Below are positions 1-38,402 of a stretch of 64,000 nt of DNA, piece after piece (within the stretch, counting starts at the first letter, position 1; every line of letters begins with the position of its first letter). Below the pieces are notes generated by a model. That model was not told the origin of the DNA, made no database searches, and saw only the letters and a list, made by a program, of their open reading frames with translations. Source of the stretch: Candidatus Kaiserbacteria bacterium (GTDB lineage Bacteria; Patescibacteriota; Minisyncoccia; Phycocordibacterales; UBA2100); the NCBI GenBank assembly GCA_023267655.1, contig JAHFMV010000001.1:31954-95953 (forward strand), written 5' to 3'. The position numbers and the translations under genes were made by a program.

Positions 1-409
1 ATACATTCGCGAACACAACCTCACCAACGTCGAACTGCGTCCGTCAATCACCCACGACAAAGTACCTGAAGCCATAAACTCCTTTGACATCTGCATCAGC
101 TACCCGTTGAAATTTCGCGATGGTGCGACATCGCCGTTCAAAATCTACGAATATCTCGCCTGCGGAAAACCGGTCGTGTCCTCGGATTTGAAAAGCATGC
201 GCGAGGAGTTCGGTGACATCCTCGCGTACGCCGAAGCCGAAAATGCGGAGTCACTCGCACGTACGCTCAAGAAATTGATTGACAACCCCGCAGCCCGAAG
301 CGCGGCCGGCGAAGCCGGCCGCGCCTTCGTTGAGAACGGCAGAAGCTGGAAATCCGTCGCAGGAAAGATCATTGCTTTGTATGCGGTAATCGAACAACCG
401 AACAGGTAA
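1..409 (+). CDS. glycosyltransferase family 1/4, C-terminal part (5' end lies outside the window)
   Basis: Frame 2 is open from base 2. The translation ...VELRPSITHDKVPEAINSFDICISYPLKFRDGATSPFKIYEYLACGKPVVSSDL... carries the EX7E-type 'E-Y-L-A-C-G-K-P-V' signature of GT1/GT4 C-terminal Rossmann domains. Stop TAA at 407-409. Confidence 0.7.
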   Translation, partial: YIREHNLTNVELRPSITHDKVPEAINSFDICISYPLKFRDGATSPFKIYEYLACGKPVVSSDLKSMREEFGDILAYAEAENAESLARTLKKLIDNPAARSAAGEAGRAFVENGRSWKSVAGKIIALYAVIEQPNR

Positions 410-426
410 CTGGTCGTTCCACTCGC

Positions 427-807
427 TTATTCCATGAGCGGCCTCATATCGTCAAAGGGAGGTACATACGATGTACCATGTGCTTGGAGATATACATGCA
501 ATTTTTCTTCAAGCCGCGGAATATTTTGGTGGGCGATTTTCCATATTGTCCCAAGTTCGAGCATAAAATAATCATGCGAAATGATATTGCGTAGTCCGAC
601 AATCATCTTCCACGGTGCGTCGATCTCGTTCTGTGTATCCGCATCCAGTTTTTTCGCGAGTTCCCCGATGACTTGCAGCTGCATGATAACGGCGCTTTGC
701 GTCTTGGAGTCCGACAGAAATGCTGGTTCATCGAATCCCGTGATATATTCCGTGGCTTTCTTGCAGGCAGCTATGATGAGATCAATGTAGACATTATTGT
801 CTTTCAT
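427..807 (-). CDS. hepT: HepT-like (DUF86) toxin of a type VII HepT/MntA toxin-antitoxin pair
   Basis: 126-aa ORF with the R-x4-H-x-Y motif (GLRNIISHDYF). It overlaps the 3' end of the upstream nucleotidyltransferase gene by 14 nt. Confidence 0.75.
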   Translation of the reverse strand: MKDNNVYIDLIIAACKKATEYITGFDEPAFLSDSKTQSAVIMQLQVIGELAKKLDADTQNEIDAPWKMIVGLRNIISHDYFMLELGTIWKIAHQNIPRLEEKLHVYLQAHGTSYVPPFDDMRPLME

Positions 808-1090
808 AGATGATCTTCAAATCGCGTTTGATGTAGGGGCGCATTCGGGCGACAACCTGTGTATCCGGCACCAGATCTACTTCAACCCCCAGGATATTTT
901 TAAGGTCTTCCTCCGCCTCTTGCTTTTCAAGAAAACTAATCGGATGTCCTTCGTCAGAGAACAAGAAATCCGCATCACTATCGGCTCGATTGTCTCCTCG
1001 TGCGCGCGAACCGAAGACGCCAACCTTGCGGAAGCCGTACTTCTTGAATATTGGCCGCGCCTTCTCGACAAGTGAATCTAGATCTTCCAT
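794..1090 (-). CDS. mntA: MntA-like minimal nucleotidyltransferase antitoxin
   Basis: G-S-x9-13-D-x-D motif (GVFGSRARGDNRADSDADF). Start chosen at MEDLDSL (ATG 1088-1090). The longer ORF-track start at 1189 reads through the duplicated glycosyltransferase segment in antisense and is probably not real. Confidence 0.7.
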   Translation of the reverse strand: MEDLDSLVEKARPIFKKYGFRKVGVFGSRARGDNRADSDADFLFSDEGHPISFLEKQEAEEDLKNILGVEVDLVPDTQVVARMRPYIKRDLKIIYERQ

Positions 1091-1147
1091 ACCCACGATG
1101 GTAGCATATTTTTCGCCATATCGCTGTATGTGGTTAGGCAGGATTTT

Positions 1148-1240
1148 GCGGCCGGCGAAGCCGGCCGCGCCTTCGTCGAAAATGGCCACAGCTGGCGTGC
1201 GGTTGCAGAAAAGATTCTCGCACTCACGAGCCTCTTTTGA
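1148..1240 (+). repeat. decayed duplicate of the glycosyltransferase 3' end (gene remnant)
   Basis: 29 nt identical to 303-331 (gcggccggcgaagccggccgcgccttcgt), then about 70% identity for a further 55 nt. It translates in frame to AAGEAGRAFVENGHSWRAVAEKILALTSLF*, against AAGEAGRAFVENGRSWKSVAGKIIALYAV... in the intact gene. Confidence 0.7.
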
Positions 1241-1251
1241 AGTGGTAACGA

Positions 1252-1542
1252 CTATCGGCGTGGGGATCCGAATACTTTTTCTTCGAGTTTGCCGAGGCGG
1301 ACTTCGGTCTTTGTGTCCCGCAGCTGCTGCTCGATTGAGTTGACCTGGGTCTGGAGTGCATATACCTGATCTTTGGTGGCAAGTCCGTCCATTCGTGCGT
1401 CAATGCGGGCTACATCTTCTGCGACGGCGCCGAAGCCCTTCTCCATCCGCGCATCAATGCCGACAACATCTTCGGCAATCGTCTCTACGAGCTTCGTCAA
1501 TTTGTCGATTTTGTTCTCGAGGGTTGGTTTTGCGGATTTCAT
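1252..1542 (-). CDS. hypothetical small coiled-coil protein with an internal tandem repeat (DV.GIDARM x2)
   Basis: ORF with ATG at MKSAKPTLENKIDKL. The repeat is visible in both nucleotide and peptide sequence (…EDVVGIDARMEKGFGAVAEDVARIDARMDGL…). Confidence 0.45.
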   Translation of the reverse strand: MKSAKPTLENKIDKLTKLVETIAEDVVGIDARMEKGFGAVAEDVARIDARMDGLATKDQVYALQTQVNSIEQQLRDTKTEVRLGKLEEKVFGSPRR

Positions 1543-1561
1543 ATGCGGCAGTATAGCATGG

Positions 1562-1732
1562 TCATTCTTTGGCATTACGCACCGCTTCAATCTTCTTGAT
1601 AGTACGCTCAAGCGCTGCTCCGCACGTGTTGCAGAGGCGCGCCTGATTGAAAAGGTAGCCGCGGCCGACGCTGTAGCCAGATTTTCTGTCGGGAATTTTC
1701 TTATTGCAGAGATCGCAGAGTTCGATGTTCAT
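1562..1732 (-). CDS. 56-aa zinc-ribbon protein (CxxC…CxxC)
   Basis: MNIELCDLCNKKIPDRKSGYSVGRGYLFNQARLCNTCGAALERTIKKIEAVRNAKE*. It is absent from the ORF track because it is under 60 aa. It sits immediately upstream of, and overlaps, the coiled-coil gene. Confidence 0.45.
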   Translation of the reverse strand: MNIELCDLCNKKIPDRKSGYSVGRGYLFNQARLCNTCGAALERTIKKIEAVRNAKE

Positions 1733-1893
1733 CGTGTGATGTTATCACGCATCGATTGCGCGCAAGATTGCGGAGCTGCCTTGATTGTTGTCGATCATGC
1801 ACAGGACGAAAATGAGGTGCAAATGTGGGGTGAAGTACACCGAGCTCGCGCCCGGGCGGTTCAAGAATTTTTGGGAGGATTGAGGACAGCCGG

Positions 1894-3087
1894 TTAGCGG
1901 CGCGGGACGAAGAGCGTGCGCGGAAAGAATTCGTTGTACTCCTCCTCGTTGAACCACGCGCACTTGATGTCGAAGAGCTTGAGACCGGGCACGAGGCGGG
2001 TGAGTGCGAGCGCGTAGATCGCGAGCTGCGCGATCGGCTTGTTGGTTCGTGCGTCCGGTTTGTAATCCAAGATATGCACGGCGCCATTGCGCACCTGCAA
2101 GAAATCGATGTGACCGGTGATGGATCGGTCGGCCGCGCCGGTGCGCGGTGCGAGCTCGATGTGGTGCTGTTGCTCGAGCGCGGTGATGTCCGTCTCCGCT
2201 AGCCAGATCGGGATCTCGATTGCAACCGTGACGCTGTCGTTGGTGAGCATGAACTTCTGCAGCGTCTCGTGTCGCAACTTGTTGTTGCCAACGGCCGGAA
2301 TGATGAGGCCGGCAATGCGGGTCGCGATGTTCTCCTTGCGGTTGACGATCACGCGCGTGATGTCCGCGAAGTCAGGCTGCGCTTGCGACGCGCGGCCGCG
2401 ATCTTCCGCACGAAAGAGGTCGTGCGGACAAATCAGTGGCACGGCCTCCAAGAAATTCGCGAGCGATGCGAAGCGCGTGTCGCCGTGGCGCTTCTCGTCG
2501 AGTTCACCACGACGGAGAAATTCTAGCTTCGGCCGGTGGAACGCGTAGCCATAGACCTGGCGGTGATAGAGCTTGATCGACCGAAGCGTTTGCTCGGGAG
2601 GGAAGAGATGCCGGCCGCGATCACGCAACCGCGAATAGCTCATGAGGTCATGATGCTGCGCGAGCCAGCTCGAGAGCGTCGAGGGAGCGATGTGGCGACC
2701 GCTCTTGGATTTGATGCGCGCTACCGTGTCCTCCAGCGAGTAGCCAAGATTGTAGGTTGAGAGCGCATCGATCACGGTGCGCAGCGGGTAGGTTTTGTTT
2801 TTGAGCGCGGCGGGGCCGGGCGTGAAGACGCGCTTGCACGATGCGCATCGCCACAGTTGCACGATCTCCAACTTCTTCTTGCGCGTGCCACGGCGCGTGA
2901 CGACGTGGCTGCCGCAGTGCGGACAGGCGTCGGGTTGCTTTGCGGTGAGCGGGACGCGGGCGATGCGGGGGATGGGGGACATACTATTGTATGTGTTCAC
3001 CGTATCATGCAGATCACGGATTTTGAATGGAGAGCTCACGAATTCTGGACGCGTGAGCGCACGCGTTTTGGATGCGGAGCGGCTCAC
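1894..3087 (-). CDS. N-terminal zinc-ribbon plus C-terminal PD-(D/E)XK-like nuclease-fold protein (possibly mobile-element associated)
   Basis: Zn ribbon CPHCGSHVVTRRG…WRCASCKRVF. The C-terminal region GHIDFLQVRNGAVHILDYKPD fits a D…(D/E)xK nuclease motif. The true start may be the internal ATG at 2982 (MSPIPRIARV…). Confidence 0.5.
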   Translation of the reverse strand: MSRSASKTRALTRPEFVSSPFKIRDLHDTVNTYNSMSPIPRIARVPLTAKQPDACPHCGSHVVTRRGTRKKKLEIVQLWRCASCKRVFTPGPAALKNKTYPLRTVIDALSTYNLGYSLEDTVARIKSKSGRHIAPSTLSSWLAQHHDLMSYSRLRDRGRHLFPPEQTLRSIKLYHRQVYGYAFHRPKLEFLRRGELDEKRHGDTRFASLANFLEAVPLICPHDLFRAEDRGRASQAQPDFADITRVIVNRKENIATRIAGLIIPAVGNNKLRHETLQKFMLTNDSVTVAIEIPIWLAETDITALEQQHHIELAPRTGAADRSITGHIDFLQVRNGAVHILDYKPDARTNKPIAQLAIYALALTRLVPGLKLFDIKCAWFNEEEYNEFFPRTLFVPRR

Positions 3088-3132
3088 GGATATTGAGCAA
3101 GAGGAGGCGCGCGGAGCGCGCGGTTGAGCCGA

Positions 3133-3570
3133 CTATTGGGTGCCGGTGTCGGGGAGTTCCGCTGGCTCCGGAGGAGCGTTGCCGTCATGCGACGACTGCT
3201 CCGCGCCCTGCGGTTGCGGGTTGTCGTTTGCTGCGGGTGGGATGAGCACCAATGGTGTTGACGAGGATACATCTAATAGAGAGGACGGTGCGACTGGGGG
3301 TGTGCTGGTCGCGGCATCAACCGGTGTGGTAGTGGTTGGGGTGTCCGCATGCATCTCCAATGCGGATGAGCCGCTCGGCGCCCCCGCGCCGTCTCCTACC
3401 GGCGTTGTGATGCTGGCGGCTGATGATTGGCTTCCTCGAAACACCGCTTCGAATTGCTCCGGCGTGACGCAGGTCGAGCCGACGCAGAGTTCGTCGGTGT
3501 TCACGCGGCCGAAATTTCCCACCTTGGCGAAGAAGTCGGTGATGCCGTCTGAGGCGGAAACCGAGCCACG
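3133..3570 (-). CDS. C-terminal tail module homologous to the C-terminus of the 1959-aa giant protein; possibly a frameshifted continuation of the 613-aa gene
   Basis: The frame is open from 3570 with a GTG start at 3522. The peptide …GITDFFAKVGNFGRVNTDELCVGSTCVTPEQFEAV…GAPSGSSALEMHADT…PPAANDNPQP aligns with the giant's tail …GIGEVFARVFRAKDALCINDTCVNEDQLKAM…GAPGGSSALEIHADT…PPAANDNEPN. A 40-nt stretch of nucleotide near-identity lies at 3341-3380 versus 5731-5770. Confidence 0.4.
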   Translation of the reverse strand, partial: RGSVSASDGITDFFAKVGNFGRVNTDELCVGSTCVTPEQFEAVFRGSQSSAASITTPVGDGAGAPSGSSALEMHADTPTTTTPVDAATSTPPVAPSSLLDVSSSTPLVLIPPAANDNPQPQGAEQSSHDGNAPPEPAELPDTGTQ

Positions 3571-3613
3571 TCACCAAGGCAACTTTGCAGACCTGCAAAA
3601 ATGCGTCGCTGAC

Positions 3614-5455
3614 TCAACTACAGTGGGCGAGTGAAGCACGTGTTCTAGGACCGACGGCGCCGTAGCCGGTCGTCGTCGAGGAACCGCTTGCGACAATTTC
3701 TTTGGAACGTTGGTACATCTGGACAGCGGTTTGTGTCAGCCTTCCAAAATAGCCGGTGTCGTTGCCCGGAACTAGAAGATGTCGTCCAATGAGATGCCGT
3801 TGCAGCATCGCCACGTCTGTGCCACGGAACCCAACGGAAAGATTGCGCGCGAGCACCGGACACGCGCCTGCGAGTTGCGGGGGAGAGGAGGAAGCGAGGA
3901 CCTGAACATCTGGAATTGCCGGCGGCGGCATTGTCAGCGGCATCGGATTGGATGAAGGCGGCGTGGCAGAAGAGGGAGGCGTTGCAATGGCTGGAACGGC
4001 AGGCGTACCCGGAGTCGGGGTAACCGGGCTCGAAGGTGATGCGGGCGTCAGCGACCGCCACCTGGCGTCATACTCTGCTTGCATGGCCGCGATCGTATCG
4101 CGCACCGACTTCGTGCCATATGCGGTCGTGATCACGTCGTCATAGCGATACGGAAAAATGACGTACTTCGCGTGGTAGGGATGCGGATCGACTGAAGAGC
4201 TTGGGCGCAGTGTGATCGTGTGCAGGTTCGCAAACTTGATGACTCCGTCGTTCGCTCCTTGCGCGACAGTGTACGAAACGGAGCGCGTATCATTCTTGAG
4301 CGTCGGGTCATAAAACCACGCGATCGTAACGTCGTCAGAAGAAGGACCGGAAGCGTTCTCAAACGTGACCCAGCGGAGGTCGATCTGAGGGAAGCCGGAG
4401 TTGTACCCCTGGTTCATTTGGGTGATTGAAGGGATCTCGACTTGCGCGACACCGCTCGGCGATGGCGTGAAGTACCGGCGATAGCCGCTGGTAAAGTAGA
4501 AGGTCGGCAGTTCAAAGAAGCCATTGCGCGTCTTTGCTCCTGCTCCCTTGTTCTCGATGGTGATGTCGTATGCGAGATAGTTGTCAGAAGCAGAGACGGA
4601 CTGTGCGAGATGCAACGTGTCTGCAGCATTCCAAGGTCCCGCATAACTCGGCCCGTAGTCCCAGTTCATCATGGTCATGTCGCCAAAGTCGACGTGGTTT
4701 TGCGCAAGGCTACATGATTGATCTGCAAAGCCGTCGCAGGTGATCGTGGGTGCGTTCGAGCCGGTCGCGACGATCGGAACCATGCTCGTTTGGTTGCCGA
4801 CGTACGTGCAGAAAGCACCGGCTTGAGTCGGATTCCAGTAGCCCTGATGCACGTCGCATGAACTTGCGGTGCCAACTGCACGCGCCATAGCGTTCGCGTC
4901 AGCTTCGTCCTGATCGTGGAACGCGACTTGCAAAGCGGCGCCCATGTTGGCGTGCAGGGCGTTGTGCGGCATCGGATCTTGCAGGGAGGTGCCGACGGCA
5001 CGTTTGCTGTAAAACTCGTAGGTCGCTCCGGTGTTGCGGTCGAGCTTCGCGCTGTAGGCCGACTTGTCGATCGATATCAGACGGTTTTCCGAAAATGCTG
5101 AGTAGTAGGGATCAAGCGTCACGGCCGACGAAACAAGGGTGTCCTTGAAGTCGGGGGGCGGCGCGAGCGTCGTACAGTCAGCTCCAATATCCCACAAGCG
5201 TACCAAGATGTTGGAGCCGGGCGTGCCGACCGGAAGCGGCTTCTTGAAGAGACATAATCCCGATCCGTGATCGGCGAGCGTGCAGCGATTTTGGAAATCG
5301 TTGGCGTCGGTGCCTACGAACCACACGTCTGCCGTGACTGGCGTATTTGGGCAGCCTGGGTACTGCGCCGCGAGCTGTGCTCCCACTGAATTGGCTCGTT
5401 GGGACAACAGGACCGGTTCAATCCAAGATGCTTGTGCAAAGGACGAGGCCGGCAC
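3614..5455 (-). CDS. secreted protein with a C-terminal peptidoglycan-binding domain (PG_binding_1-like) and a Pro/Thr-rich linker
   Basis: 613-aa ORF. The C-terminal LQRHLIGRHLLVPGNDTGYFGRLTQTAVQMYQ matches the PGBD consensus. An N-terminal signal-peptide-like stretch (…GTLILSSVIGATLVVPASSFA|QA) lies upstream of the track's GTG start and has no canonical ATG/GTG/TTG. Confidence 0.7.
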   Translation of the reverse strand: MPASSFAQASWIEPVLLSQRANSVGAQLAAQYPGCPNTPVTADVWFVGTDANDFQNRCTLADHGSGLCLFKKPLPVGTPGSNILVRLWDIGADCTTLAPPPDFKDTLVSSAVTLDPYYSAFSENRLISIDKSAYSAKLDRNTGATYEFYSKRAVGTSLQDPMPHNALHANMGAALQVAFHDQDEADANAMARAVGTASSCDVHQGYWNPTQAGAFCTYVGNQTSMVPIVATGSNAPTITCDGFADQSCSLAQNHVDFGDMTMMNWDYGPSYAGPWNAADTLHLAQSVSASDNYLAYDITIENKGAGAKTRNGFFELPTFYFTSGYRRYFTPSPSGVAQVEIPSITQMNQGYNSGFPQIDLRWVTFENASGPSSDDVTIAWFYDPTLKNDTRSVSYTVAQGANDGVIKFANLHTITLRPSSSVDPHPYHAKYVIFPYRYDDVITTAYGTKSVRDTIAAMQAEYDARWRSLTPASPSSPVTPTPGTPAVPAIATPPSSATPPSSNPMPLTMPPPAIPDVQVLASSSPPQLAGACPVLARNLSVGFRGTDVAMLQRHLIGRHLLVPGNDTGYFGRLTQTAVQMYQRSKEIVASGSSTTTGYGAVGPRTRASLAHCS

Positions 5456-5537
5456 GACAAGTGTTGCGCCAATGACGGACGAAAGAATGAGAGTGCCGTG
5501 GGTCAGATACCGAATATGGTATCACGCATCCGGGCAC

Positions 5538-8500
5538 TTACTCGTTGACAGCTGTGGGTGTGGCCACATCGACGTTGGGCTCATTGTCGTTCGCGGCTGG
5601 TGGAACAGGTGGATCATTCTCCACTGCTCCCTCCTCGCTTCCCGCAGTGCCATCTCCGGTCTCGGTCGGAGTGGTGGGGCCGGTGCTGGTTGCGGTCGGG
5701 GAACTATCCGTCGACGGCGTCGTTGACGCGGTGTCCGCATGTATCTCCAATGCGGATGAGCCGCCGGGCGCTCCAGCTGATCCTCCCGGTCCTGTTGTTG
5801 CAGCGCCGGCGGCTGATGCTGAGAGCATCGCTTTGAGCTGGTCTTCATTGACGCATGTGTCGTTGATGCAGAGTGCATCCTTTGCGCGGAAGACGCGTGC
5901 AAATACTTCGCCGATGCCGTTGGTGGCGTCGGCGAGCCACTGTGTCAGCCGCGCAAAGAGGGAAGCGAAGAAGCGGCTGGTGAAGGTGCCTTCCGGGATT
6001 TCGGGCGTGGTAGTCGCGAGGTCTTCGAGTTTGAGGTTGAGGTCTTGGATCGCCTTTGCGAGGAGGGGCGTGATGCGGCCGTAGTCAACGCTCCACGGCG
6101 TCGAGGTTGCCCCGAGCGGGTCGATGCCGTTGTCGCCGTTGGTGGTCACGGCCCACGGGAAGACCTGTTGCAATTCCTGCGCGATGAAGCCCGTGGTCGT
6201 CGCGTGTGCCGGGTCGGTGATGAAGTCGAAGTCGCGCACCGTGAGACGCATCAGCGCGTCCAGCCCCAGCGTCGTCGTCGCGATGTTCTCTTTGATGCGG
6301 CGATCCGAAGAGGTGTTGTAAGAGACGATGCTTTCATTTTGCGCGATGTTGCCTGCCACCCCGCCCGAGGTATTTAGGAACAACACCGACGAGCCGCTAT
6401 AACTGGCACTCGTGCTCCTCATTGTAATGGCTTGTTGTGTGCTAGCGTTCCAACTTAAATATAATTTTGATCCATCGGAAGTTGCGCCGATGCCGACGTT
6501 GCCGGCGCTGTTCGCGTTGAGCGAAAGTGTCGACCCTTCAATTGCAAGTGGCTTATATACGGCTCCCGCACGGTCGTAAGCGCGGACCTGGCCTGACGTT
6601 CCGTCCCACGTAAGCTCCGTGCCGACACCGTTCGTTGGTGCCACCTGACTCGTCGCGCGTATCGTGCCAAAGACGTCCAATTTTCCGGTTGGAGTAGTTG
6701 TGCCGATGCCGACGTTGCCGCCGCCCGTGACAACAAAATGCGTGGCGGTCGAGGAGCCGATCACAAATTCAGGGACGCCACTGCCGAGGGCATTTGGATT
6801 GACGGAGAGGAGGGCCCACGGACTTGTCGTGCCGATGCCGACGTTGCCGGCGTTCAATGTCATGACATCGCCACCGGTGCGGGTGTAGAGACGGATTTGA
6901 TCCGTTTGCGACGTGGGCCGGTAAATTCCTCCCGCTTCGAGACTATCCGACTGGAACGACAGTGCACTCAAAGATGCGTTAGGTGAATTTATAACTGAAT
7001 ACGTATTGCCTGTGCTCGAGACCACTAATGTCTTGGCGGGCGACGTGGTGCCGATGCCGACGTTGCCGCTGGAGTTAACGAGGAAGTAGGTGGCCGTGCT
7101 GGAGCCGATGGCGAAGGAGTTGATGCCTGCGGCTGCATGCACGCTCAGCTGCGCCCACGGGGACGTGGTGGCTATTCCGAATTTCCCGGCGCTGTATGCC
7201 GAGCCGTCGTTGTTCACCTGGAAGAGAGTAGTCGACGCGGAGTTCGCGACGAGGAATGATTGCGTTGAAGCCGATGTGTCAGAGCCCCAGAGCGTGAGTT
7301 TAGAGTATGGGGTGGAGGTGCCGATGCCGACGAGGTCGGTGCTATCGGCGAGGAATGATTGTGTGTTGTCGTTTTGCCAGCCGCCGGCGGTGGCGTTTAC
7401 GGGTGCGATGAGGGCGCCGGTGAAGTAGGTCGCAGCTGCAGTACCGTCAATTATTGTCCCGTCAGTAGTGCCACGTGCTTCGATATAGTCCGTTGTGCCG
7501 TTCATATCAACAACGGCTGTTGCCATGCCCGTGGCGTCAAAACTACTGCCGCGATAACGGCCAACCCCAACTGGGATCGCATTTTTGTATATTGATCCAT
7601 CGCAGTATGCGACTGAAACGGACTGGCCAAAATCTCCGCAACGAACCGAGAGAGTGATGATGTACTTGCCTGGGACTGTCGGCGTGAATTTGTTCGAGGC
7701 GAAATTGTTATTGGTGTCGAATGTCTCTGTGGACCAGGTCAAAGCAGTGTCGACGTTCGCCGACACCGTCTGATCCGTCCCGTTCTTGTTCACACTAAAA
7801 CTCGGCCCACTGGTAGCGGTCGTGACGCCCTGCCACGTGCCGCCGGAGTTCTTGAACTCGAGCATGCCCGCGTTGTCGCGGAAGCCGTAGCCCGAGGTGC
7901 CTTCGGTCGCGCCGAAGTTCAGATAACCGCTTGCCGGGAAAAGCGCGTTGCCGCTCGCCGTGAACGTCGTCGTCGCCGTGCCGCCGAAGTATGCGCTGTA
8001 TGCAGAGAGCATTGTCGTCGAAGCTCCGCCGTTGAAGAGCGTGAGCGTTGTTGTTGCGCTCGTCCCTGCGACCGCGTGGGTAAAGGGATCGCCGCCCGAG
8101 CCGGAGCCGCATGCGGACGCATTTGCCGAGACCGTGCCGTCGCTACCCACTTGCAAGCAGCGCGTTCCCGTCCCGCCTGTGTTCGAGATCACGAGCGCCG
8201 TCGTCGATGCGGTCGTAGCGGAGAGCATCGTTGTCGATGCGAAGGGGATTGAAAGTGCCGTGCCCGCGGGTGCGGCGAAGTTGATGGTGAGATTTGATCC
8301 GCCAACGAGTGCACCGGCAGTTCCGGAGAACGAAAGCGCGGTGCCGGCCGACAAGGAACTTGTCGCGACCGATTGATACGCAGTGCTACCGCCGTACAAG
8401 AGTTGTGAGACGGGAGCGGTCGTGGTGCCGGTACCACCTTTCGCGATTGTGAGCGTTCCCGTGATTGTCGAGAGCGTGGAGGTTGCGATCCACGACGGCT

Positions 8501-11417
8501 TGCCGTTTTGGAGCGTGAGCACCAGGCCGTCAGTGGAAGAGGCAAGCGTGGTGAGCGAGCTTGCGGAGTTCGCGTAGAGAAGATCACCGGAGGTGAACGA
8601 CGAGAGACCGGTGCCACCCTTGTTTGCGGCGATCGTCGTCGCGTTCCACGTGCCTGTCCCGATCGTTCCGAGCGTCGTGACGTTCGTTGACCCTGCCCAC
8701 GTCGAGAGCGCGGTGTTCTCGACGTTGTTGAGGGCGAGCGTTGACTTGAGATTTGCGGTTGAGGTGCCGGCGAGCGTACCGGTGCCGGATGCAAAGAGGA
8801 CATCACCAAGCGTGTAAGAGGTGAGGCCCGTGCCACCGGAGGCGACACCGAGCGTGCCGCTGATGTTCGCGAGCGTCGTGGTGGATACCCATGTTGGTGT
8901 TCCAGAGACGAGCCCAAGGACTTGGCCGTTGGTACCGGCTGATGTTGTCGCGACAGGGCCGGTACCGTTGCCGAGGACGACTGCACCGCTTGCGACGTTC
9001 GCCCAGCCGGTGCCGCCGTTTGATACGCCGAGGATGCCGGTGACATTCGACGCGAGATCGACGAGTGCGGTGGTGATCGATCCCGCAGTTGCTTTGAGAA
9101 ACCCGGAGAGTGCACCGATTGAGAGGTTGCCGAAGAAGCCGCTCGTTGATGAGGCGTACGTTGCGGAGAGGTTGGTGGTCGAGGCGGTGCCGAGTGTAGC
9201 CTTGCCGGTCACGTCGAGCGTGCCGGCGATCGCGACATTGCCTGCCGTGTCGATCGTCGTCGATGCGGTCGCACCGAACTTCGCTTGGAGGGCGGAGAGA
9301 AGTGTTGAAGATGCTTGTTGAATATTGGTGACGTACGTCGTGGTTGTCGGCGCGAGGAAGTTGCCGGAGACTTCCCACGACTTGCCGAAAAGAGATGACA
9401 CGGCAGCGTAATCCGTGCCGGCGACGGCCGAGGTGACTTGGCCTCCCGTTGTTGTTTTCAGGAGTGAGCCACTGTTGATGCCGGAGATCCACAAGTTGGT
9501 GGAGCTCGCGGTTGTTGCCGTGATCATTGTTGTGGAGGCGAAAGGAAGCGAGCTCGCGATGCCGTCGCCGCGGATTGTGGTGGTGGCGGTGCGGCCGATA
9601 GCGACGTAGTCGAAGGCATCGAGCCGCGTTGTTGTTGCGTTCGTCGCAACGAGGGTGGTGGATGTGAGGTTAGTGATTGTCGCCGCGACGGATGAGAGTG
9701 TGTCGATGATGCCCGTTGTGAAGCGGCCGAGTGTCGCGAAAAGATTTGTCGATGTCGCATTGGTCGCTGTGGCGTTGGTGAAATCCGCGTTCACGAAGTG
9801 CGAGGTCGATGAGGCGAAGAGACCGGATTGCGCCCAGATGATGGATGAGGTCGCGGCGGCGAGTTGTCCGTAGTTCGAAAGGAACGTGAAGGGTGACGCG
9901 GAACCGACCGCAGTGTCGTCCGATCCGCAGATCACATTGCCGTTTGCATCGGTCTGCAGAAGTTGTCCCGACGACGAGCAATCGAGGCCGGAGAGTGTGA
10001 GACCGCCGGCGAGACGGATGCCGTTTGCAAATGTCGATGTTGCTGTTGTTGACGTGACATTGAGTGCGGTTGTTTGCAGACCCGCGCCGAAGGTCGAGGT
10101 TGCGCTGCCGAGAATTGTTGTCGTTGCGGTGCGGCCGACAAAGATGCCATCCAGTGATGAGAGTGCGGTGGTTGATGCGCCGCCACCCAAGAGGACGAGT
10201 GAGGTGGTTGCGCTTTGTCCTGCGACCGCATGCGTCCACGCATCGTACGATGCAAGACCGCCACCACCGCTCGTGATGCCGAGCGATGAAGTGGCAGCAA
10301 GATTATAGCCGCCGGAAGAATTTCCCAATAACAGTTGACCGTATGTCGGAGACGCTGATGTTGCGGTGCCGCCTTTCGCGATTGCGAGAACGCCGGAGAA
10401 ATCCGTTGCCGTGATTGATCCGCCGGTGATCGTTGCACCACTGATCGTGCCGCCATCGATTGTGGGGGAGTGGAGTTTAGTGTCTGTGAGTTCTTCGATG
10501 CGACCGACGCTGCCTACGGTTTGGTAGATCGTCTGGCTTTCGGAATGTGATGCCGCGGCGACGCTCGCGATTTGTGATTGGAGCGATGTTGCGAGTGCGG
10601 TCATGCGTGCATCCAGTAGAGCGGCGTTGATCCCACCTTCGGTGACGGTGCGGACGGTTTCGCGGATGCGTTCGATGACCGGATTGTTGACCACTGTTAG
10701 AGAGCGCTGCGCCTCTAACGTGGCAGGTTTGGTTGTTGGGGATGACCCTTTCTCTGAAGAGGTTGAGAGCGTTGTTGCTGGTGGTGGCGGCGCTCCGGTT
10801 GGTGGTTGCAGATGTTGTTGCGTCGAAGGTGTTGCGATTTCTGTGGGCGAACAGTTTCCGATGATCGGGCACACCGCGTTGAAAACATTTGATGCAAGCG
10901 CATCGATCCACGGAAGCGATGCGACGGCTGCGAGTTGCGATTGGATATTTTCCGGTGCGTGTGTTGCTGCGTCGACGGCTGCGGCGAATTTTTGTGGCGC
11001 GATGTTTTGAAAGGCGAGGGCGCCGGATGCCATGACCGCGAAGAGCGTAAGTGTTGCGAGAAATGCAGTGCCCGCGGCACGCACGCGTTGTGCGCGTTTG
11101 ATGTGTTGTTTGAAGCGGTCGTTGAGTTCGCGGTGTGGTGCGACGGTGATTGGAGATGTTACGGCGTGGCCGTTGGCACGCTCCTCTTTGCGGAGTTCGC
11201 GAGTTCTCTCGCGCAATGCATCTTTTCGGCGGGCTTGGTTCGCGCGCCATTCTGAAAGTGACGCAGGATTGACGTACCACTCGCGGCCTTCAAGCCTGCC
11301 GTGGACGACGCCCTTGCGACATAGGCGGCTGATGTAGTCAGCGGAAATTTCGACACCAGTTGCGGCGTCTCTCACGGAAACGAAGCGCACACCGGCCACA
11401 ATAATTTCAGATGACAT
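5538..11417 (-). CDS. giant (1959 aa) membrane-anchored tail-fibre-like surface protein with N-terminal excisionase-like HTH, one TM helix, GNVGIGT(T/A)SP beta-repeats and a Peptidase S74 intramolecular-chaperone domain
   Basis: ATG at 11415-11417. Residues 1-60 resemble the HTH_17/excisionase fold (…VSVRDAATGVEISADYISRLCRKGVVHGRLEGREWYV…). TM helix AAGTAFLATLTLFAVMASGALAF. Four or more GNVGIG(T/A)TSP repeats. SSDRRIKENI…GFIAQELQQVFPWAV matches the phage endosialidase/tail-fibre chaperone (S74) autoproteolysis module, about 6310-5990 nt. Confidence 0.85.
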   Translation of the reverse strand: MSSEIIVAGVRFVSVRDAATGVEISADYISRLCRKGVVHGRLEGREWYVNPASLSEWRANQARRKDALRERTRELRKEERANGHAVTSPITVAPHRELNDRFKQHIKRAQRVRAAGTAFLATLTLFAVMASGALAFQNIAPQKFAAAVDAATHAPENIQSQLAAVASLPWIDALASNVFNAVCPIIGNCSPTEIATPSTQQHLQPPTGAPPPPATTLSTSSEKGSSPTTKPATLEAQRSLTVVNNPVIERIRETVRTVTEGGINAALLDARMTALATSLQSQIASVAAASHSESQTIYQTVGSVGRIEELTDTKLHSPTIDGGTISGATITGGSITATDFSGVLAIAKGGTATSASPTYGQLLLGNSSGGYNLAATSSLGITSGGGGLASYDAWTHAVAGQSATTSLVLLGGGASTTALSSLDGIFVGRTATTTILGSATSTFGAGLQTTALNVTSTTATSTFANGIRLAGGLTLSGLDCSSSGQLLQTDANGNVICGSDDTAVGSASPFTFLSNYGQLAAATSSIIWAQSGLFASSTSHFVNADFTNATATNATSTNLFATLGRFTTGIIDTLSSVAATITNLTSTTLVATNATTTRLDAFDYVAIGRTATTTIRGDGIASSLPFASTTMITATTASSTNLWISGINSGSLLKTTTGGQVTSAVAGTDYAAVSSLFGKSWEVSGNFLAPTTTTYVTNIQQASSTLLSALQAKFGATASTTIDTAGNVAIAGTLDVTGKATLGTASTTNLSATYASSTSGFFGNLSIGALSGFLKATAGSITTALVDLASNVTGILGVSNGGTGWANVASGAVVLGNGTGPVATTSAGTNGQVLGLVSGTPTWVSTTTLANISGTLGVASGGTGLTSYTLGDVLFASGTGTLAGTSTANLKSTLALNNVENTALSTWAGSTNVTTLGTIGTGTWNATTIAANKGGTGLSSFTSGDLLYANSASSLTTLASSTDGLVLTLQNGKPSWIATSTLSTITGTLTIAKGGTGTTTAPVSQLLYGGSTAYQSVATSSLSAGTALSFSGTAGALVGGSNLTINFAAPAGTALSIPFASTTMLSATTASTTALVISNTGGTGTRCLQVGSDGTVSANASACGSGSGGDPFTHAVAGTSATTTLTLFNGGASTTMLSAYSAYFGGTATTTFTASGNALFPASGYLNFGATEGTSGYGFRDNAGMLEFKNSGGTWQGVTTATSGPSFSVNKNGTDQTVSANVDTALTWSTETFDTNNNFASNKFTPTVPGKYIITLSVRCGDFGQSVSVAYCDGSIYKNAIPVGVGRYRGSSFDATGMATAVVDMNGTTDYIEARGTTDGTIIDGTAAATYFTGALIAPVNATAGGWQNDNTQSFLADSTDLVGIGTSTPYSKLTLWGSDTSASTQSFLVANSASTTLFQVNNDGSAYSAGKFGIATTSPWAQLSVHAAAGINSFAIGSSTATYFLVNSSGNVGIGTTSPAKTLVVSSTGNTYSVINSPNASLSALSFQSDSLEAGGIYRPTSQTDQIRLYTRTGGDVMTLNAGNVGIGTTSPWALLSVNPNALGSGVPEFVIGSSTATHFVVTGGGNVGIGTTTPTGKLDVFGTIRATSQVAPTNGVGTELTWDGTSGQVRAYDRAGAVYKPLAIEGSTLSLNANSAGNVGIGATSDGSKLYLSWNASTQQAITMRSTSASYSGSSVLFLNTSGGVAGNIAQNESIVSYNTSSDRRIKENIATTTLGLDALMRLTVRDFDFITDPAHATTTGFIAQELQQVFPWAVTTNGDNGIDPLGATSTPWSVDYGRITPLLAKAIQDLNLKLEDLATTTPEIPEGTFTSRFFASLFARLTQWLADATNGIGEVFARVFRAKDALCINDTCVNEDQLKAMLSASAAGAATTGPGGSAGAPGGSSALEIHADTASTTPSTDSSPTATSTGPTTPTETGDGTAGSEEGAVENDPPVPPAANDNEPNVDVATPTAVNE

Positions 11418-11889
11418 GATTATTCGGAAAGCCTAGGTATTGCCTAGAATTTCCGTCATTGGCTCATGATAGCGTGCCACCGTCTGGCAGTGTGCGGTTA
11501 TCCACTTTCAAGTGGAGCGCGGGATGGTATCGCGCTAGCTGGTACAGCGGAGCCGGAGTCCACATCGTGCATACCGTATGCGCCGATTTTCCTCGGAAAT
11601 GAGTGTCACCACGACCATCACGCGAAGCCTTCAGTCGATGTGGCTTGTGATCTCGACCAGCGGTTCTCGAGCGGCTTCTATCGCCAGCTTATGCGCACTT
11701 TACATCCGAGATTCGTTGTTCATATATACCCGGAATAGCTAGCATTTACATGATATCTCGGTATCTCGGGTCATAGTACGGGAGGCGGCCAAATTGCGGT
11801 GCACAACGCCATAACGCAATTGAGTGCGCCAGCGCTGGAGCGACACGCGCTCGTCGATTTGGAGTTGGCGGAAGTTACACTGTAGAGAT

Positions 11890-11930
11890 AAAGCAGGTGC
11901 ACGTTTTCCAGATGACGAGCGCCTTCATGG
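11890..11930 (+). repeat. decayed duplicate of the 3' end of the monooxygenase gene (12744-12790)
   Basis: Identical 21-mer gcacgttttccagatgacgag at 11898-11918 and 12748-12768, with about 85% identity over about 36 bp. The reverse translation MKALVIWKTCTCF… compares with GMDALVIWKTCIYLITNMF in the intact gene. Confidence 0.6.
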
Positions 11931-11955
11931 TGCGAAATCATGGTATAATCGCGAA

Positions 11956-12243
11956 ATGCGCATTACGGAAGCACAGGCACGGCTGCTGAAAGAAGGGGTC
12001 CGCGAATACCTGCCACAGGCGAGTGTGTATCTGTTCGGGTCGCGTGCGGACGATGCGAAGCGTGGCGGCGACATTGACGTGCTTGTCGTAGGGGAGCGGC
12101 CGCTTCAACCTTTAGAGAGCAGCCGCGTCAAGGCGAGATTTTATGAACGTTTCGGAGAGCAGAAAATCGACATTGTGAGTTTCGCAGAGGGCGAACATAC
12201 CACGTTCCGCGATCTGATAGAATCCGAGGCGGTGCCTCTCTGA
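11956..12243 (+). CDS. mntA: MntA-like nucleotidyltransferase antitoxin (second copy)
   Basis: MRITEAQARLLKEGVREYLPQASVYLFGSRADDAKRGGDIDVLVVGE carries the GS…D.D motif. It is preceded by TGgTATAAT at 11941-11949, only 6 nt before the ATG, which implies a leaderless mRNA. Confidence 0.7.
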   Translation: MRITEAQARLLKEGVREYLPQASVYLFGSRADDAKRGGDIDVLVVGERPLQPLESSRVKARFYERFGEQKIDIVSFAEGEHTTFRDLIESEAVPL

Positions 12244-12244
12244 A

Positions 12245-12700
12245 ATGCATATGCCCGATACCGCGAACATCAAACGCGCCCTCCTCGAGAATGTTGCATC
12301 GCTGCAGCGCGCGGGGCGCGTCTTGGCGCGTTCATACGAGAAATGCCGCACCATCACAGTTCCTTTCCCAGCCGAAGACGACGAGATGCTCGAAACCATA
12401 GAAGCGTTGACTTCGCGCTTCGCGCGCGCCTCCGATATCTTGACACAGCGAGTCGGCAAATCGATCGTCGCGCTTTCTCGCGAAGATGCGCCGTCTATTA
12501 TTGATAGGATACACCTCATGGAGAAAATCGGCGCGATCGCAAGCGAAAATACGCTCATCGCGATCCGAGACGTTCGCAATGAAATCGCGCACGAATATAC
12601 CGAAGAAGGCGTACAGAAAGTATTTGAAAAATGCATGCCGCTCGTACCGCAGCTCCTCGTGATGATTGATTCGGTCGCGAAGTACGCTGAGAAACTATAA
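12245..12700 (+). CDS. hepT: HepT-like (DUF86) toxin (second copy)
   Basis: R-x4-H-x-Y motif (IRDVRNEIAHEY). The start is 1 nt after the stop of the upstream mntA. Confidence 0.7.
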   Translation: MHMPDTANIKRALLENVASLQRAGRVLARSYEKCRTITVPFPAEDDEMLETIEALTSRFARASDILTQRVGKSIVALSREDAPSIIDRIHLMEKIGAIASENTLIAIRDVRNEIAHEYTEEGVQKVFEKCMPLVPQLLVMIDSVAKYAEKL

Positions 12701-12707
12701 GCGAAAA

Positions 12708-14057
12708 TCAGTGCGCTTTGCGAAACATGTTTGTGATGAGGTAGATGCACGTTTTCCAGATGACGAGTGCATCCATGCCAAAGAGCCGCGCTACGTGGCG
12801 CTCTTTGCGATAGCGTTTATAGGCGACCGCGTAGGACATCGTCGTGTGGACGACGAGTGTGTAGAGGGAATGGAAATTTTCGGGAAAATATTTCTCGAGG
12901 ATCATTTCGACGTTTGAGCGAGAGACAAACAGCGGCATTTCGTAGCGGTCTTTGAGGTCGATGAAGCGCGCTTTGCATACGTCGGCGAGAACGTCGGTGT
13001 CCGGCTTACGCCGCGCTTCGAAAATTTGGAACACGGTTTCGATGTCCGGGTAATACGTGTCGAGGCATTCGGCAAAAATGCGACAGTCTTCAAATGCAGC
13101 GTTGATTCCTTGACCATAAAAAATAGTGACCGCATGCGCGGCGTCTCCGAGCAGAATGCAAAAGTCACGGTAATACCATTTCGATGTGTAGAGCGAGGTG
13201 AACGGCGTCGATGGCTGCGTAAGGAAATCGTTGACGTGGGGTGCAAGATGCGGATACAAATCGGGGAAGTGTTCGGTACAAAATCTTTCGAATGATTCTG
13301 TCGATTGGATCGATTCAAAACTGTCCGGACCGGTAAGCGGAAGCGTGATCGTACAGGTAAAAAAGTTGCCTCGGTTCGGAATGCCGAAAATTGCTGCTTT
13401 TTTCTTTGACCATAGATGGAAGGCGTTCTTTTGGAACGGAATTGATCCGTCGGTCGGTGCTGGCACGTACATGTTTTTATACCCCCAATCCATGACGTCG
13501 AGTTTCGCACGGAGGTGCCCGGCCTGTTCCATTTCTTTGCGAACCACCGAATGGATGCCGTCCGCGCCGAGGAGGAGCTCTACTTTTTTCGTGGTATGCG
13601 CTTTTGTTAGTTGGTTTTCAAATTCTATTTCACGCGTCTCGAAATCAATGTGGACGCAGCGCTCATTGTAGTGCGTGTGAATCGAAGAATATTTTTTCAT
13701 TTCTCGGACGAGCGCGCAGTTTAAGTCATTGCGATTGATCGACCACTCGGCGAGTCCTTGCTTTTCGCCATAGGCCTGATACAGAAGTCCGTTTTTCTGG
13801 TGGATGATGCGGCCGGCTTCACGCGTGCAGAGTTTTTTCACTTCGTCCCACATCTGCACTTCCTGCAGCGCACGGATGCCGCGCACGCAGAGCGACTGGT
13901 TGATTGATTTGTACGAAACCACGGGGAGGTTTTCGATGCTTTCACGAGATTCATATATTTCGACGATGAAGTTTCTTCGCGCAAGATAGATCGCAAGCAG
14001 TGAGCCGCCCATGCCAGCGCCGATTATCGTGACCTTCTTGTCAGGTGTCTTTATCAT
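12708..14057 (-). CDS. FAD-dependent monooxygenase, kynurenine 3-monooxygenase-like
   Basis: N-terminal GAGMGGS dinucleotide-binding motif; SIN…RG, LLLGADGIHSVVR and LLGDAAHAVTIFYGQGINAAFEDC match KMO/UbiH-family blocks. Confidence 0.7.
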   Translation of the reverse strand: MIKTPDKKVTIIGAGMGGSLLAIYLARRNFIVEIYESRESIENLPVVSYKSINQSLCVRGIRALQEVQMWDEVKKLCTREAGRIIHQKNGLLYQAYGEKQGLAEWSINRNDLNCALVREMKKYSSIHTHYNERCVHIDFETREIEFENQLTKAHTTKKVELLLGADGIHSVVRKEMEQAGHLRAKLDVMDWGYKNMYVPAPTDGSIPFQKNAFHLWSKKKAAIFGIPNRGNFFTCTITLPLTGPDSFESIQSTESFERFCTEHFPDLYPHLAPHVNDFLTQPSTPFTSLYTSKWYYRDFCILLGDAAHAVTIFYGQGINAAFEDCRIFAECLDTYYPDIETVFQIFEARRKPDTDVLADVCKARFIDLKDRYEMPLFVSRSNVEMILEKYFPENFHSLYTLVVHTTMSYAVAYKRYRKERHVARLFGMDALVIWKTCIYLITNMFRKAH

Positions 14058-19600: not shown

Positions 19601-19726
19601 ATGAAAGTTATCAAATCACTCTCGTTCACCCTTTTTGTCTTCGGACTCCTCGGCTGGCTCTACATCGTCTTGAATTCCGCGATACACCCGTGGACTTTGG
19701 CGATGCCACTTTACACACTGCGTTAG
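19601..19726 (+). CDS. 41-aa single-TM peptide, paralog of 22985-23203
   Basis: MKVIKSLSFTLFVFGLLGWLYIVLNSAIHPWTLAMPLYTLR*. It shares about 80% nucleotide identity over about 85 bp with the other copy. Confidence 0.4.
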   Translation: MKVIKSLSFTLFVFGLLGWLYIVLNSAIHPWTLAMPLYTLR

Positions 19727-19733: not shown

Positions 19734-20594
19734 TTAAAAATGCTTGCGAACAATCGCGTCTGTCAGTGTTGCGACTCTTTTCATTGCGGCGACGTCGTGG
19801 ACGCGGACGATATCGACACCTCGATCGATTAAAAGCGCGACCGCAGCCGCAGTTCCTTCAAGACGCTCGTGCGCGGGAAGGTTAAGAGTGTATCCGACAA
19901 ATGACTTACGCGATGGGCCGGCAAGGATAGGATAGCCAAGCTTTGTAAGCTCTCGGAAACGGTTCACCAGTTCCAGATTTTGCTCGACGGTTTTCCCAAA
20001 ACCGATTCCCGGATCGATAATAATATTTTCTTTTTTTATGCCTGCAGTGAGAGCGTCGTCGATTGAAACTTGTAACTCACGTTCTATATCCGTCATGAGA
20101 TCGCTGTATTCGACACCGGCATAACGTCCTCCAAGTGAATTGTGCTTAGTAACATCTTTCTCGCGACTACGATTGTGCATCACGACGATGGGTACCCCTT
20201 TGCTCGCAGCAACATGTGCCATGTTTTTGTCGCGTTGCAGACCCCACACGTCGTTAATCATACCCGCGCCTGCTTCAACCGCGTGTCGCGCAACTTCTGA
20301 TTTGTACGTGTCGATTGAAATGGGGATCCGTACTTTCGTCGCGAGACCTTGTATCACCGGGATCACTCGCGCAAGTTCTTCTTCTTGCGAAATCGGCACG
20401 CTGCCGGGGCGTGTGGATTCGCCGCCAACATCAAGAATATCTGCCCCTTCGGCTTCCAATCGTGCACCTTGTTCAATTGCCCCCGCGATCCAATTGTCAT
20501 CCTGAAGCACGCCATCCCCAGAAAAAGAATCAGGCGTGACATTAATGACGCCCATGATATATGTCTTCGAACCCCACGTGAAGTTTTTGTTCAT
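19734..20594 (-). CDS. folP: dihydropteroate synthase
   Basis: Pterin-binding DHPS blocks: MGVINVTPDSFSGDG, ADILDVGGESTRPG, ISIDTY, MINDV. Confidence 0.9.
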   Translation of the reverse strand: MNKNFTWGSKTYIMGVINVTPDSFSGDGVLQDDNWIAGAIEQGARLEAEGADILDVGGESTRPGSVPISQEEELARVIPVIQGLATKVRIPISIDTYKSEVARHAVEAGAGMINDVWGLQRDKNMAHVAASKGVPIVVMHNRSREKDVTKHNSLGGRYAGVEYSDLMTDIERELQVSIDDALTAGIKKENIIIDPGIGFGKTVEQNLELVNRFRELTKLGYPILAGPSRKSFVGYTLNLPAHERLEGTAAAVALLIDRGVDIVRVHDVAAMKRVATLTDAIVRKHF

Positions 20595-21076
20595 ATCTGG
20601 TGCGCAGTGCGAACGACCCCTCGTGATGAAATCTTTTTGAACAGATATCGCATCGTCAATCGCAGCCGTGGATGAACAAGATCGGGCGCGATATCGGTAA
20701 GAGGTGCAAGAACAAATGCGCGTTCATGCATCCGTGGGTGGGGGATCGTGAGTGAGGGAGAATCCATTTGCTGGTCGTCATACAGCACAATGTCGAGGTC
20801 AATGACACGCGGGCCATTGCGAAAAGTCTTCGTGCGTCCGACTGCCTCCTCTACACTCTTTAGATGCGCAAGGAGTTTTTCCGGCGACAAGTCAGTCCGC
20901 ACTCGCACAACCGCGTTGCAGAATGCCGGTTGTTCGCGTACATATTGCGGCTCGGTCTCATAGATCGGCGATAGTGCTTCAACCACCACGCCCGGCTCCA
21001 GCCTCTGTAGAGCTTCACGCATATGACGAGCCCGGTCGCCGAGATTTGAGCCGAGCGCTATGTATACGATCGCCAT
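20591..21076 (-). CDS. folK: 2-amino-4-hydroxy-6-hydroxymethyldihydropteridine pyrophosphokinase (HPPK)
   Basis: MAIVYIALGSNLGD…; GPRVIDLDIVLY; ERAFVLAPL. The stop overlaps the folP start (4-nt overlap). Confidence 0.85.
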   Translation of the reverse strand: MAIVYIALGSNLGDRARHMREALQRLEPGVVVEALSPIYETEPQYVREQPAFCNAVVRVRTDLSPEKLLAHLKSVEEAVGRTKTFRNGPRVIDLDIVLYDDQQMDSPSLTIPHPRMHERAFVLAPLTDIAPDLVHPRLRLTMRYLFKKISSRGVVRTAHQI

Positions 21077-21142
21077 GGACATCAAGCCTATCATTACGCT
21101 GCGATTTTGCGGAAATACCACCGATGCTATAGTGCGGGCACT

Positions 21143-21847: not shown

Positions 21848-21934
21848 CCTTTTATGCATCCTACGATAGGTTTCGAGCGAGACTTCTTCTTGTTGCAGGA
21901 GATCAGGGTGAAAAAGAAAGCCAAGGGGCCGATC

Positions 21935-22984: not shown

Positions 22985-23203
22985 ATGAGAATTCTTAAAG
23001 CCGCATCCTTTACACTTTTTGTCTTCGGACTCTTGGGATGGCTGTATATCGTCCTCAATTCGGAGATACATCCGTGGACGCTTTCGATGCAGCTCACTCA
23101 TTTTCTGCCGTTTCCGCGCGAGGATACGGCGGGGGAGATTAGTTTTGTCGTGTCGCTCGTTTCTTTCTTTGTTTGGAATCTCGTGAAAGATGGCCAGCGA
23201 TAA
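22985..23203 (+). CDS. small single-TM protein, paralog of 19601-19726
   Basis: MRILKAASFTLFVFGLLGWLYIVLNSEIHPWTLSMQ…. Confidence 0.4.
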   Translation: MRILKAASFTLFVFGLLGWLYIVLNSEIHPWTLSMQLTHFLPFPREDTAGEISFVVSLVSFFVWNLVKDGQR

Positions 23204-38390: not shown

Positions 38391-38402
38391 AAGGGTAGGT
38401 AT

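Follow-up and report, generated by a model that had tools for sequence, protein, structure and literature searches.

A HepT/MntA-family toxin–antitoxin cassette between two copies of a glycosyltransferase gene end in a Kaiserbacteria-like genome

How chromosomal toxin–antitoxin (TA) modules move without mobile-element machinery is a long-standing loose end, and a locus in an ultra-small, Kaiserbacteria-like bacterium of the Candidate Phyla Radiation (CPR) raises this question anew. The window analyzed here, i.e., a 64,000-nt stretch of Candidatus Kaiserbacteria bacterium (contig JAHFMV010000001.1, positions 31,954 to 95,953 of the forward strand), begins inside a gene for a GT4-family glycosyltransferase (GT; 3′ part at 1–409, + strand, Pfam Glyco_trans_1_2 and Glycos_transf_1), whose full 406-aa product was read from another contig of the organism (L001). 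Directly behind this gene lies a mntA–hepT gene pair (427–1090, – strand), and behind this pair the end of the GT gene appears a second time. An earlier reading of the letters alone (the sequence-only reading) had pointed out this duplicated gene end around HepT/MntA, and alignment indeed recovered both an exact 29-nt repeat and a second copy of ca. 93 nt that is in frame and has its own stop codon. The account that we consider probable is that the TA cassette was inserted at the GT 3′ end by host recombination, in the long-target-duplication mode described for restriction–modification (RM) genes, with one of the two copies being a diverged allele.

The core of the repeat is a 29-mer (GCGGCCGGCGAAGCCGGCCGCGCCTTCGT) with exactly two copies in the window, at 302–330 and 1148–1176, both on the + strand, while zero such duplicates were expected by chance (100 shuffles). 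Ungapped homology extends past this core (81% identity over 68 nt, 302–369 vs. 1148–1215) and then weakens toward the stop codon of the orphan copy at 1238–1240, so that 28 of the 60 nt downstream of the core are mismatched (ca. 53% identity there). The 29 identical nucleotides of the sequence-only reading were thus recovered, while its figure of ca. 70% for the remainder proved valid only for the first ca. 40 nt after the core. The GT frame is kept in both copies: the left, in-gene copy (core plus "tail A", 302–394, + strand) reads ...AAGEAGRAFVENGRSWKSVAGKIIALYAVIEQPNR up to the stop codon at 407–409, with the gene extending 15 nt beyond the repeat copy, and the right, orphan copy (core, "tail B" and stop, 1148–1240, + strand) reads AAGEAGRAFVENGHSWRAVAEKILALTSLF up to its own stop. 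Given its two copies in 64 kb and its identity as coding sequence from the GT 3′ end, the repeat is no dispersed multi-copy element.

Since the GT 3′ end is coding, part of the identity between the copies could reflect constraint on the protein. Among five orthologous GT tails, the longest exact match to the repeat region is 14 nt (GGCCGCGCCTTCGT, encoding GRAFV), so that coding constraint accounts for about half of the 29-mer and leaves the other 15 nt unexplained. The similarity between the copies therefore exceeds what orthologous GT genes show. The GC richness and the conserved GRAFV codons are all that speaks for chance similarity or an assembly artefact, and this explanation is extremely improbable: the shuffles predicted no match, the same structure is present in independent assemblies (L002 from Logan and L051 from ENA) and is therefore no assembly artefact, and the divergence of the two copies means that they are not collapsed or duplicated reads. 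As a separate observation, one MEGAHIT contig of the organism (L001) ends at window position 1105, 43 nt short of the orphan copy; the repeat is shorter than the assembler k-mer, yet the contig breaks near the junction, and this break may reflect strain heterogeneity at that point.

The unit between the two gene ends (410–1147, 738 nt) holds mntA and hepT alone. The hepT gene (427–807, – strand) encodes a putative 126-aa toxin (Pfam PF01934, 79 bits vs. a cut-off of 23.5) with the Rx4HxY motif, within GLRNIISHDYF, and the mntA gene (794–1090, – strand) encodes a putative 98-aa nucleotidyltransferase antitoxin (Pfam PF01909/PF18765) with the GSx..DxD motif (GSRARG...DSDAD). The mntA gene is located upstream of hepT with a 14-nt overlap (794–807), and its upstream region (1091–1147, – strand), which forms the last part of the insert, contains a –10-like box that is conserved in an alignment of five cassettes. 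Both proteins exceed the Pfam gathering scores; the NCBIfam equivalog level (HepT_toxin and MntA_antitoxin) is not reached (39.9 and 41.6 bits, respectively, vs. a cut-off of 60). Judged by its Pfam domains, the pair is therefore a member of the HepT/MntA type VII TA family and no equivalog of the characterized proteins, with which it shares the HepT-like and NTP_transf_2 domains, both motifs, and the antitoxin-first order of overlapping genes. In type VII HepT/MntA systems, MntA AMPylates HepT, and HepT cleaves RNA. The HepT protein has many homologues of the same length that are 60–81% identical, i.e., closer than the host GT is to its own orthologues (at most 58% identical), while HepT homologues on plasmids, among them the Shewanella oneidensis MR-1 megaplasmid, reach at most 37% identity. 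The gene callers used for public assemblies place the MntA start at a GTG at 1189 (131 aa), antisense through the orphan GT end; since MntA homologues are 96–104 aa long and the DNA homology starts from the ATG at 1090, this extension is probably an annotation artefact.

The surroundings of the GT gene in related genomes indicate what the site looked like without the insert. At five loci of related Kaiserbacteria-like genomes (L004/L143, L006, L009, L141, and L142), the gene order is DUF2206, GT, a convergently oriented flavin adenine dinucleotide (FAD)-dependent monooxygenase gene, Polysacc_synt, and cellulase, with a single GT whose 3′ end overlaps that of the FAD gene by 4–29 nt or lies at most 183 nt from it. 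The GT and FAD genes of the window are separated by ca. 12.3 kb, and from FAD onward, through Polysacc_synt and cellulase, the gene order matches that of the relatives. Since GT and FAD abut in the relatives, ca. 12.3 kb has been inserted between them here. The 183-nt spacer of L141, the closest relative, contained no orphan fragments and only hairpins. The sequence-only reading had inferred an insertion beside the GT end in which the left copy still serves the gene and the right copy is orphaned, and the gene end on both sides of the cassette supports this; what it had missed is the larger frame, in which the cassette forms one edge of the 12.3-kb GT–FAD insertion and a mirror-image MNT/HEPN cassette forms the other.

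These relatives also bear on whether the orphan could be what is left of a paralogous GT, tandem or imported, that was mostly deleted or replaced by the cassette, a scenario that the sequence-only reading had raised. Tail B does resemble a functional GT C-terminus and carries the GHSW motif of the family. Nevertheless, we regard such an origin as quite improbable, since each of the five relatives has a single GT that directly or nearly adjoins FAD and none lends support to a tandem paralogue, the homology begins abruptly at the identical block, and the pattern recurs at other genes and around the same TA family elsewhere. The candidate idea that the GT itself is a foreign outlier was rejected as well: identity to L006 is 53% for GT, 57% for DUF2206, 62% for Polysacc_synt, and 80% for FAD, so that DUF2206 and Polysacc_synt are similarly diverged and FAD is merely more conserved.

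The far edge of the 12.3-kb insertion mirrors the first, with the order from left to right being GT with tail A, hepT/mntA, the orphan GT end, an island, an orphan FAD end, an MNT/HEPN-like pair, and the FAD gene end. The repeat at the FAD end (11887–11929 vs. 12735–12777) brackets this second pair (11956–12700, + strand), which consists of an MNT open reading frame (ORF; 11956–12243, Pfam NTP_transf_2) and a 151-aa ORF (12245–12700) with an RNEIAHEY motif and no Pfam match. The orphan FAD-monooxygenase 3′ end (MKALVIWKTCTCFISTV up to its stop) spans 11875–11931 on the – strand, and the in-gene copy (12708–12779) is the 3′ end of the FAD gene (12708–14057, – strand, identified via Pfam), i.e., the gene whose 80% identical L006 orthologue abuts GT. 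The island between both orphan ends (1241–11874) has a GC content of ca. 60% (1900–11400) vs. ca. 50% in the flanks, and its ORFs encode a coiled-coil protein, a Zn-ribbon protein, a Zn-ribbon/PD-(D/E)XK protein, a peptidoglycan (PG)-binding protein, and a 1959-aa surface protein.

A third such site lies at the start of a giant gene for a 5021-aa protein (48597–63662), whose upstream region and first codons are present in triplicate (46848–47117, 47697–47789, and 48534–48672), with a ParD/ParE pair and a DUF433/DUF5615 pair between the copies. The FAD end and this gene (46848/47697/48534) are the two other places in the window at which the sequence-only reading had seen the same architecture, and both were found again. 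Side by side with this, a RelB/YafQ pair precedes copy 1, the YafQ stop lying 4 codons before it in the same frame; copy 1 contains in-frame insertions, and the last 14 codons of ParE come from copy 2.

A folate-type cassette (19734–22912), comprising folP, folK, a CofE-like gene, and an ATP-grasp gene, is likewise bracketed, in this case by a duplicated stretch (19601–19726 and 22985–23203) that comprises the initial 36 codons of a gene for a small membrane protein; on the left, it forms a 41-codon orphan with its own stop. Since this cassette has the same architecture, the pattern is not restricted to TA cargo. Short direct repeats of more than 75% identity at such spacings were rare in 39 other loci.

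The pattern extends far beyond the window. Four HepT homologues were traced to their contigs, where their neighbours are all different and no GT is nearby, and all four cassettes are bracketed by a direct repeat whose sequence differs per locus: 36 nt at 78% identity and a spacing of 749 (L052), 100 nt at 96% and 847 (L053), 61 nt at 75% and 806 (L054), and 104 nt at 85% and 854 (L057), next to 68 nt at 81% and 846 for the GT repeat of the window. The unique insert is ca. 655–760 nt in most loci. A metagenome scan yielded 80 further HepT loci, 48 of which were testable; flanking repeats (E ≤ 1e-3) were present in 18 of these 48 cassette loci and in 8 of the 116 windows shifted as controls (Fisher p = 4e-6), and among relatives that were at least 41% identical the proportion was 12/18 (p = 4e-8). 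The repeats in the surveyed loci are 28–245 nt long, and many of them span the stop or start codon of the neighbouring gene. The sequence-only reading had proposed such a search for HepT/MntA in other contexts and had argued against coincidence, and the locus-specific repeats show the recurrence to be real. In a separate observation, L054 and L067 have two back-to-back MntA–HepT pairs (3027–4381 in L054) between a GroEL-side block and a giant gene, a layout that resembles the TA array of the window between GroEL (41909–43567) and the 5021-aa gene; the GroEL/giant-gene interval may be a conserved insertion hotspot.

Which machinery could have placed the cassettes at these sites? In the five-cassette alignment, DNA homology is confined to the stretch from the –10-like box through the hepT stop, and no conserved ends, inverted ends, or attachment (att)-like site were found in it. 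Neither integrase or transposase domains nor a tyrosine or serine recombinase gene were present in the cassette or among the ORFs of the window that were scanned, the nearest oddity being the Zn-ribbon/PD-(D/E)XK protein at 1894–3087. No relatives were found on viral contigs, and plasmid HepT homologues are less than 40% identical. Carriage by a phage or a close plasmid was consequently rejected on the last two grounds. A DNA transposon or miniature inverted-repeat transposable element was rejected because conserved or inverted ends are lacking and the repeats are 28–245 nt long, vs. target duplications of less than 15 bp, and an integron gene cassette because there is no conserved non-coding end and no integrase and because junction hairpins occur in only 3–4 of 18 repeat pairs.

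The hairpin question arose at the GT junction itself, where a strong palindrome (296–330; 14-bp stem with a GAA loop, DNA fold of –20.6 kcal/mol, z –5.4) has the start of the repeat in its left arm, with the orphan copy retaining just the inner 9-bp stem. As a general rule, a junction hairpin was rejected, since it was seen only in the window, L069, L079, and, as a borderline case, L053. Nevertheless, two features speak for site-specific integration of a miniature element with a surrogate gene end, with an integrase acting in trans and the 29-nt block as att core: the palindrome, and an identical core behind which a diverged substitute end preserves the ORF. Prophage e14 and phage 21 integrate in this way into the 3′ end of icd, using their own integrase and a constant att site, and the GT locus resembles them in that a gene 3′ end occurs twice, with an identical core, then a diverged in-frame end, and with the displaced end orphaned. 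Unlike these phages, however, the unit is only ca. 740 bp long, and no integrase was found in the cassette or among the other ORFs scanned in the 64-kb window. Moreover, the cassette ends are not conserved, and the repeat differs at each site, in the window as well as in ca. 19 contexts elsewhere; related cassettes thus use different sites with different repeats and reuse no common att core. Integration of this kind is therefore improbable. Only part of the claim of the sequence-only reading that a specific mechanism mobilizes TA cassettes could be upheld: the association with the TA family is strong, but the folate cassette is bracketed alike, and conserved ends and a recombinase are lacking.

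The sequence-only reading had further assumed that the right copy is a decaying duplicate. This was confronted with a null model in which mutations hit the orphan at random and, at an equal neutral rate, the gene copy accepts synonymous changes alone. Contrary to the assumption, the GT tails retain 11 of 20 residues despite 28 changes in 60 nt (P = 0.003–0.004), with no indel, no frameshift, and no premature stop. At the folate site, 28 of 36 residues are retained with 28 of 108 nt changed (P = 8e-5), the changes being strongly synonymous-biased, and at L080, a locus of the same TA family in another genome, the two copies (NRALSASEVLQLYRMGK vs. NRALSASEVKQLYRMGR, each up to its stop) differ in 13 of 54 nt while retaining 16 of 18 residues (P < 5e-5 in a model with all changes placed at random). 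That residues are kept despite nucleotide change indicates that at least some of the orphans diverged mostly as parts of functional genes, and by their substitutions the GT tails look like two functional alleles rather than a fresh duplicate plus decay. The GC content (0.47 for tail A and 0.46 for the cassette, 0.53 for both tail B and the GT body, all short segments) weakly hints that the cassette goes together with tail A, and the gene with tail B.

The most serious contender is nevertheless that insertion truly duplicated the target, through staggered breaks or template switching, and that the orphan has since decayed neutrally. Near-identical pairs do occur around related cassettes (L053, 96% over 100 nt; L074, 94.5%; L107, 90% over 245 nt), the FAD orphan looks shortened and has no selective signature, and the published RM cases have been read in this way (PMC2853133). 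Still, the orphans at GT, the folate site, and L080 preserve protein beyond random change, indels and premature stops are lacking despite 24–47% nucleotide divergence, and the divergence of the GT pair is very uneven, with 29/29 identical positions before the drop to ca. 53%. As the sole explanation, duplication followed by decay thus appears unlikely; with subsequent allelic exchange, it may still account for the initial event.

In the account that we favour, a ca. 740-bp type VII TA cassette, with its own –10 box, mntA, and hepT, would have entered the ancestral junction between GT and the convergent FAD-monooxygenase gene, leaving the last ca. 30–31 GT codons on both sides, with the left set completing the gene and the right set orphaned. 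Uptake of foreign DNA plausibly preceded the insertion, and, as the cassette brings neither recombination machinery nor defined ends, the event itself would have been made by host DNA repair or recombination. Since the copies differ as alleles, one of them would have either arrived with the cassette or been overwritten later. On the first route, the cassette would arrive together with a homeologous gene end of a diverged donor and be inserted in a Campbell-type event that crosses over within the 29 identical nucleotides; on the second, a true duplication would come first, after which the gene copy is overwritten by homologous recombination with a diverged allele. Campbell-type insertion–duplication of circular DNA with one homologous segment is familiar from the laboratory as insertion–duplication mutagenesis in competent bacteria, and it likewise flanks the insert with direct repeats of the homologous segment whose copies are donor/recipient chimeras. 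In contrast to the laboratory procedure, no circular intermediate or donor was observed here. The insertion itself, the repeat and its recurrence, the lack of conserved ends or a recombinase, and the allele-like substitutions are shown by the sequences, whereas the recombination route and the choice of the native copy are what we infer, because no nucleotide-level empty site, circle, or polymorphism was found.

Several points weigh against this account. The allele-like test on the GT pair rests on 20 codons, and 14 of its 29 identical core bases are conserved in the orthologues too. The FAD tails gave no signal (P = 0.65), and the FAD orphan looks shortened relative to its orthologues, which fits plain duplication and decay. 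The Campbell model does not by itself explain the first insertion at a new site. Moreover, mismatch polarity within the repeats was not consistent over 18 pairs (127 vs. 130), which, together with the hairpins not being general, means that no single crossover geometry is supported. Finally, no empty site at nucleotide resolution is available: the search with GT found nothing above 58% protein identity and that with FAD nothing above 82%, and in the genome-contig scan no close relative was among the matches, from which the source genome itself was likewise absent. The five relatives have one GT tail abutting FAD, but with GT at 53–58% identity they are too diverged for this purpose, and since the nearest relatives are 53–82% identical at the protein level, the single-copy target is deduced from gene order instead of being seen. 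Every site-spanning contig of the organism has the cassette, with no sign of polymorphism, of an excision product, or of a circle; the same-organism search for cassette-free contigs consisted of exact-protein look-ups of HepT and the downstream coiled-coil ORF.

Precedent for such a mode of insertion comes from RM gene units, for which "insertion with long target duplication" has been described (Nobusato et al. 2000, Gene 259:99; Furuta, Abe & Kobayashi 2010, PMC2853133). In those cases, found mostly in species with natural competence, units without mobility genes are flanked by repeats of 30–420 bp that often lie across a start or stop codon, and no mechanism has been established, although the process was tentatively tied to DNA breakage by the cargo (PMC2853133). 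The GT cassette is similar: it is a small unit of the addiction type that lacks mobility genes, and direct repeats of this kind, tens to hundreds of bp in length, are specific to the locus and often cover the start or stop codon of the neighbour, so that this gene stays intact. Of the features that Furuta and colleagues used, direct repeats of more than 30 bp (68–93 nt) and an insert below 20 kb without mobility genes (738 nt) are present at GT, while near-identity of the repeat copies is not (81% over 68 nt, and ca. 53% after the core). More generally, the copies reported here are 65–96% identical, and allele-like where coding, vs. ca. 93–100% in the published RM cases, and a nucleotide-level empty site is not available here. 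The mode is therefore a known one, and what is new are the TA and folate cargo, the CPR host, and the more diverged, allele-like repeats. In a 2013 review, this mode is attributed solely to RM systems (PMC3874152), and no report of TA cassettes with long target duplications was found in the literature. As the cargo consists of a toxin from a family annotated as RNase, not DNase, and of folate enzymes, the DNA-breaking activity that was proposed as common driver for RM systems is absent here.

An architecture of long target duplications around cargo without known DNA-cleaving activity points to a host process, and in one TA family it is frequent across many uncultured genomes. Patescibacteria carry competence and homologous-recombination genes and are considered competent and recombination-proficient (PMC12455944). 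It is conceivable, and put forward here only tentatively, that CPR/Patescibacteria routinely acquire small accessory cassettes (chiefly TA, but also metabolic) by recombinase-independent, homology-anchored insertion, each time leaving a displaced allelic start or end of the neighbouring gene. If the recombinase-free reading is true, the orphan fragments would be "fossil alleles" that record each acquisition, and host recombination, rather than the DNA-cutting nature of the cargo, would lie behind the long target duplications around RM genes. Orphan gene ends that diverge like alleles are a sequence signature that can be mined at scale, and that would help to date and trace gene acquisition in these streamlined, probably naturally competent CPR bacteria.

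A few further observations concern the surroundings of the cassette. Upstream of the window start (L051, 3942–4886), a 95-aa ORF and a GNAT acetyltransferase gene, possibly a TacAT-like TA pair, lie between DUF2206 and GT, which adjoin in the relatives without these two genes in between; no flanking repeat was found around this insertion. Adjoining the orphan GT end, a 397-aa protein (1894–3087, – strand) carries an IS1/IS1595-type zinc ribbon and, at its C-terminus, a PD-(D/E)XK (AddA-like) nuclease domain; it matches no named family. Farther away, a perfect 48-nt palindrome (35733–35780) is situated inside an HhH-GPD ORF (35136–36068), and inverted repeats (38388–38458 vs. 41424–41491 and 41853–41900, 73–82% identical) flank the region of an SBP_bac_5 gene. 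Within the island, a 129-aa ORF (3133–3522, – strand) resembles the C-terminal ca. 120 aa of the 1959-aa surface protein (5538–5900, – strand; 47% over 64 aa, E 4e-6), and the gene for the 613-aa PG-binding protein (3614–5455) lies between this ORF and the end of the surface-protein gene, so that this gene, too, may be an insert with the same gene end on either side.

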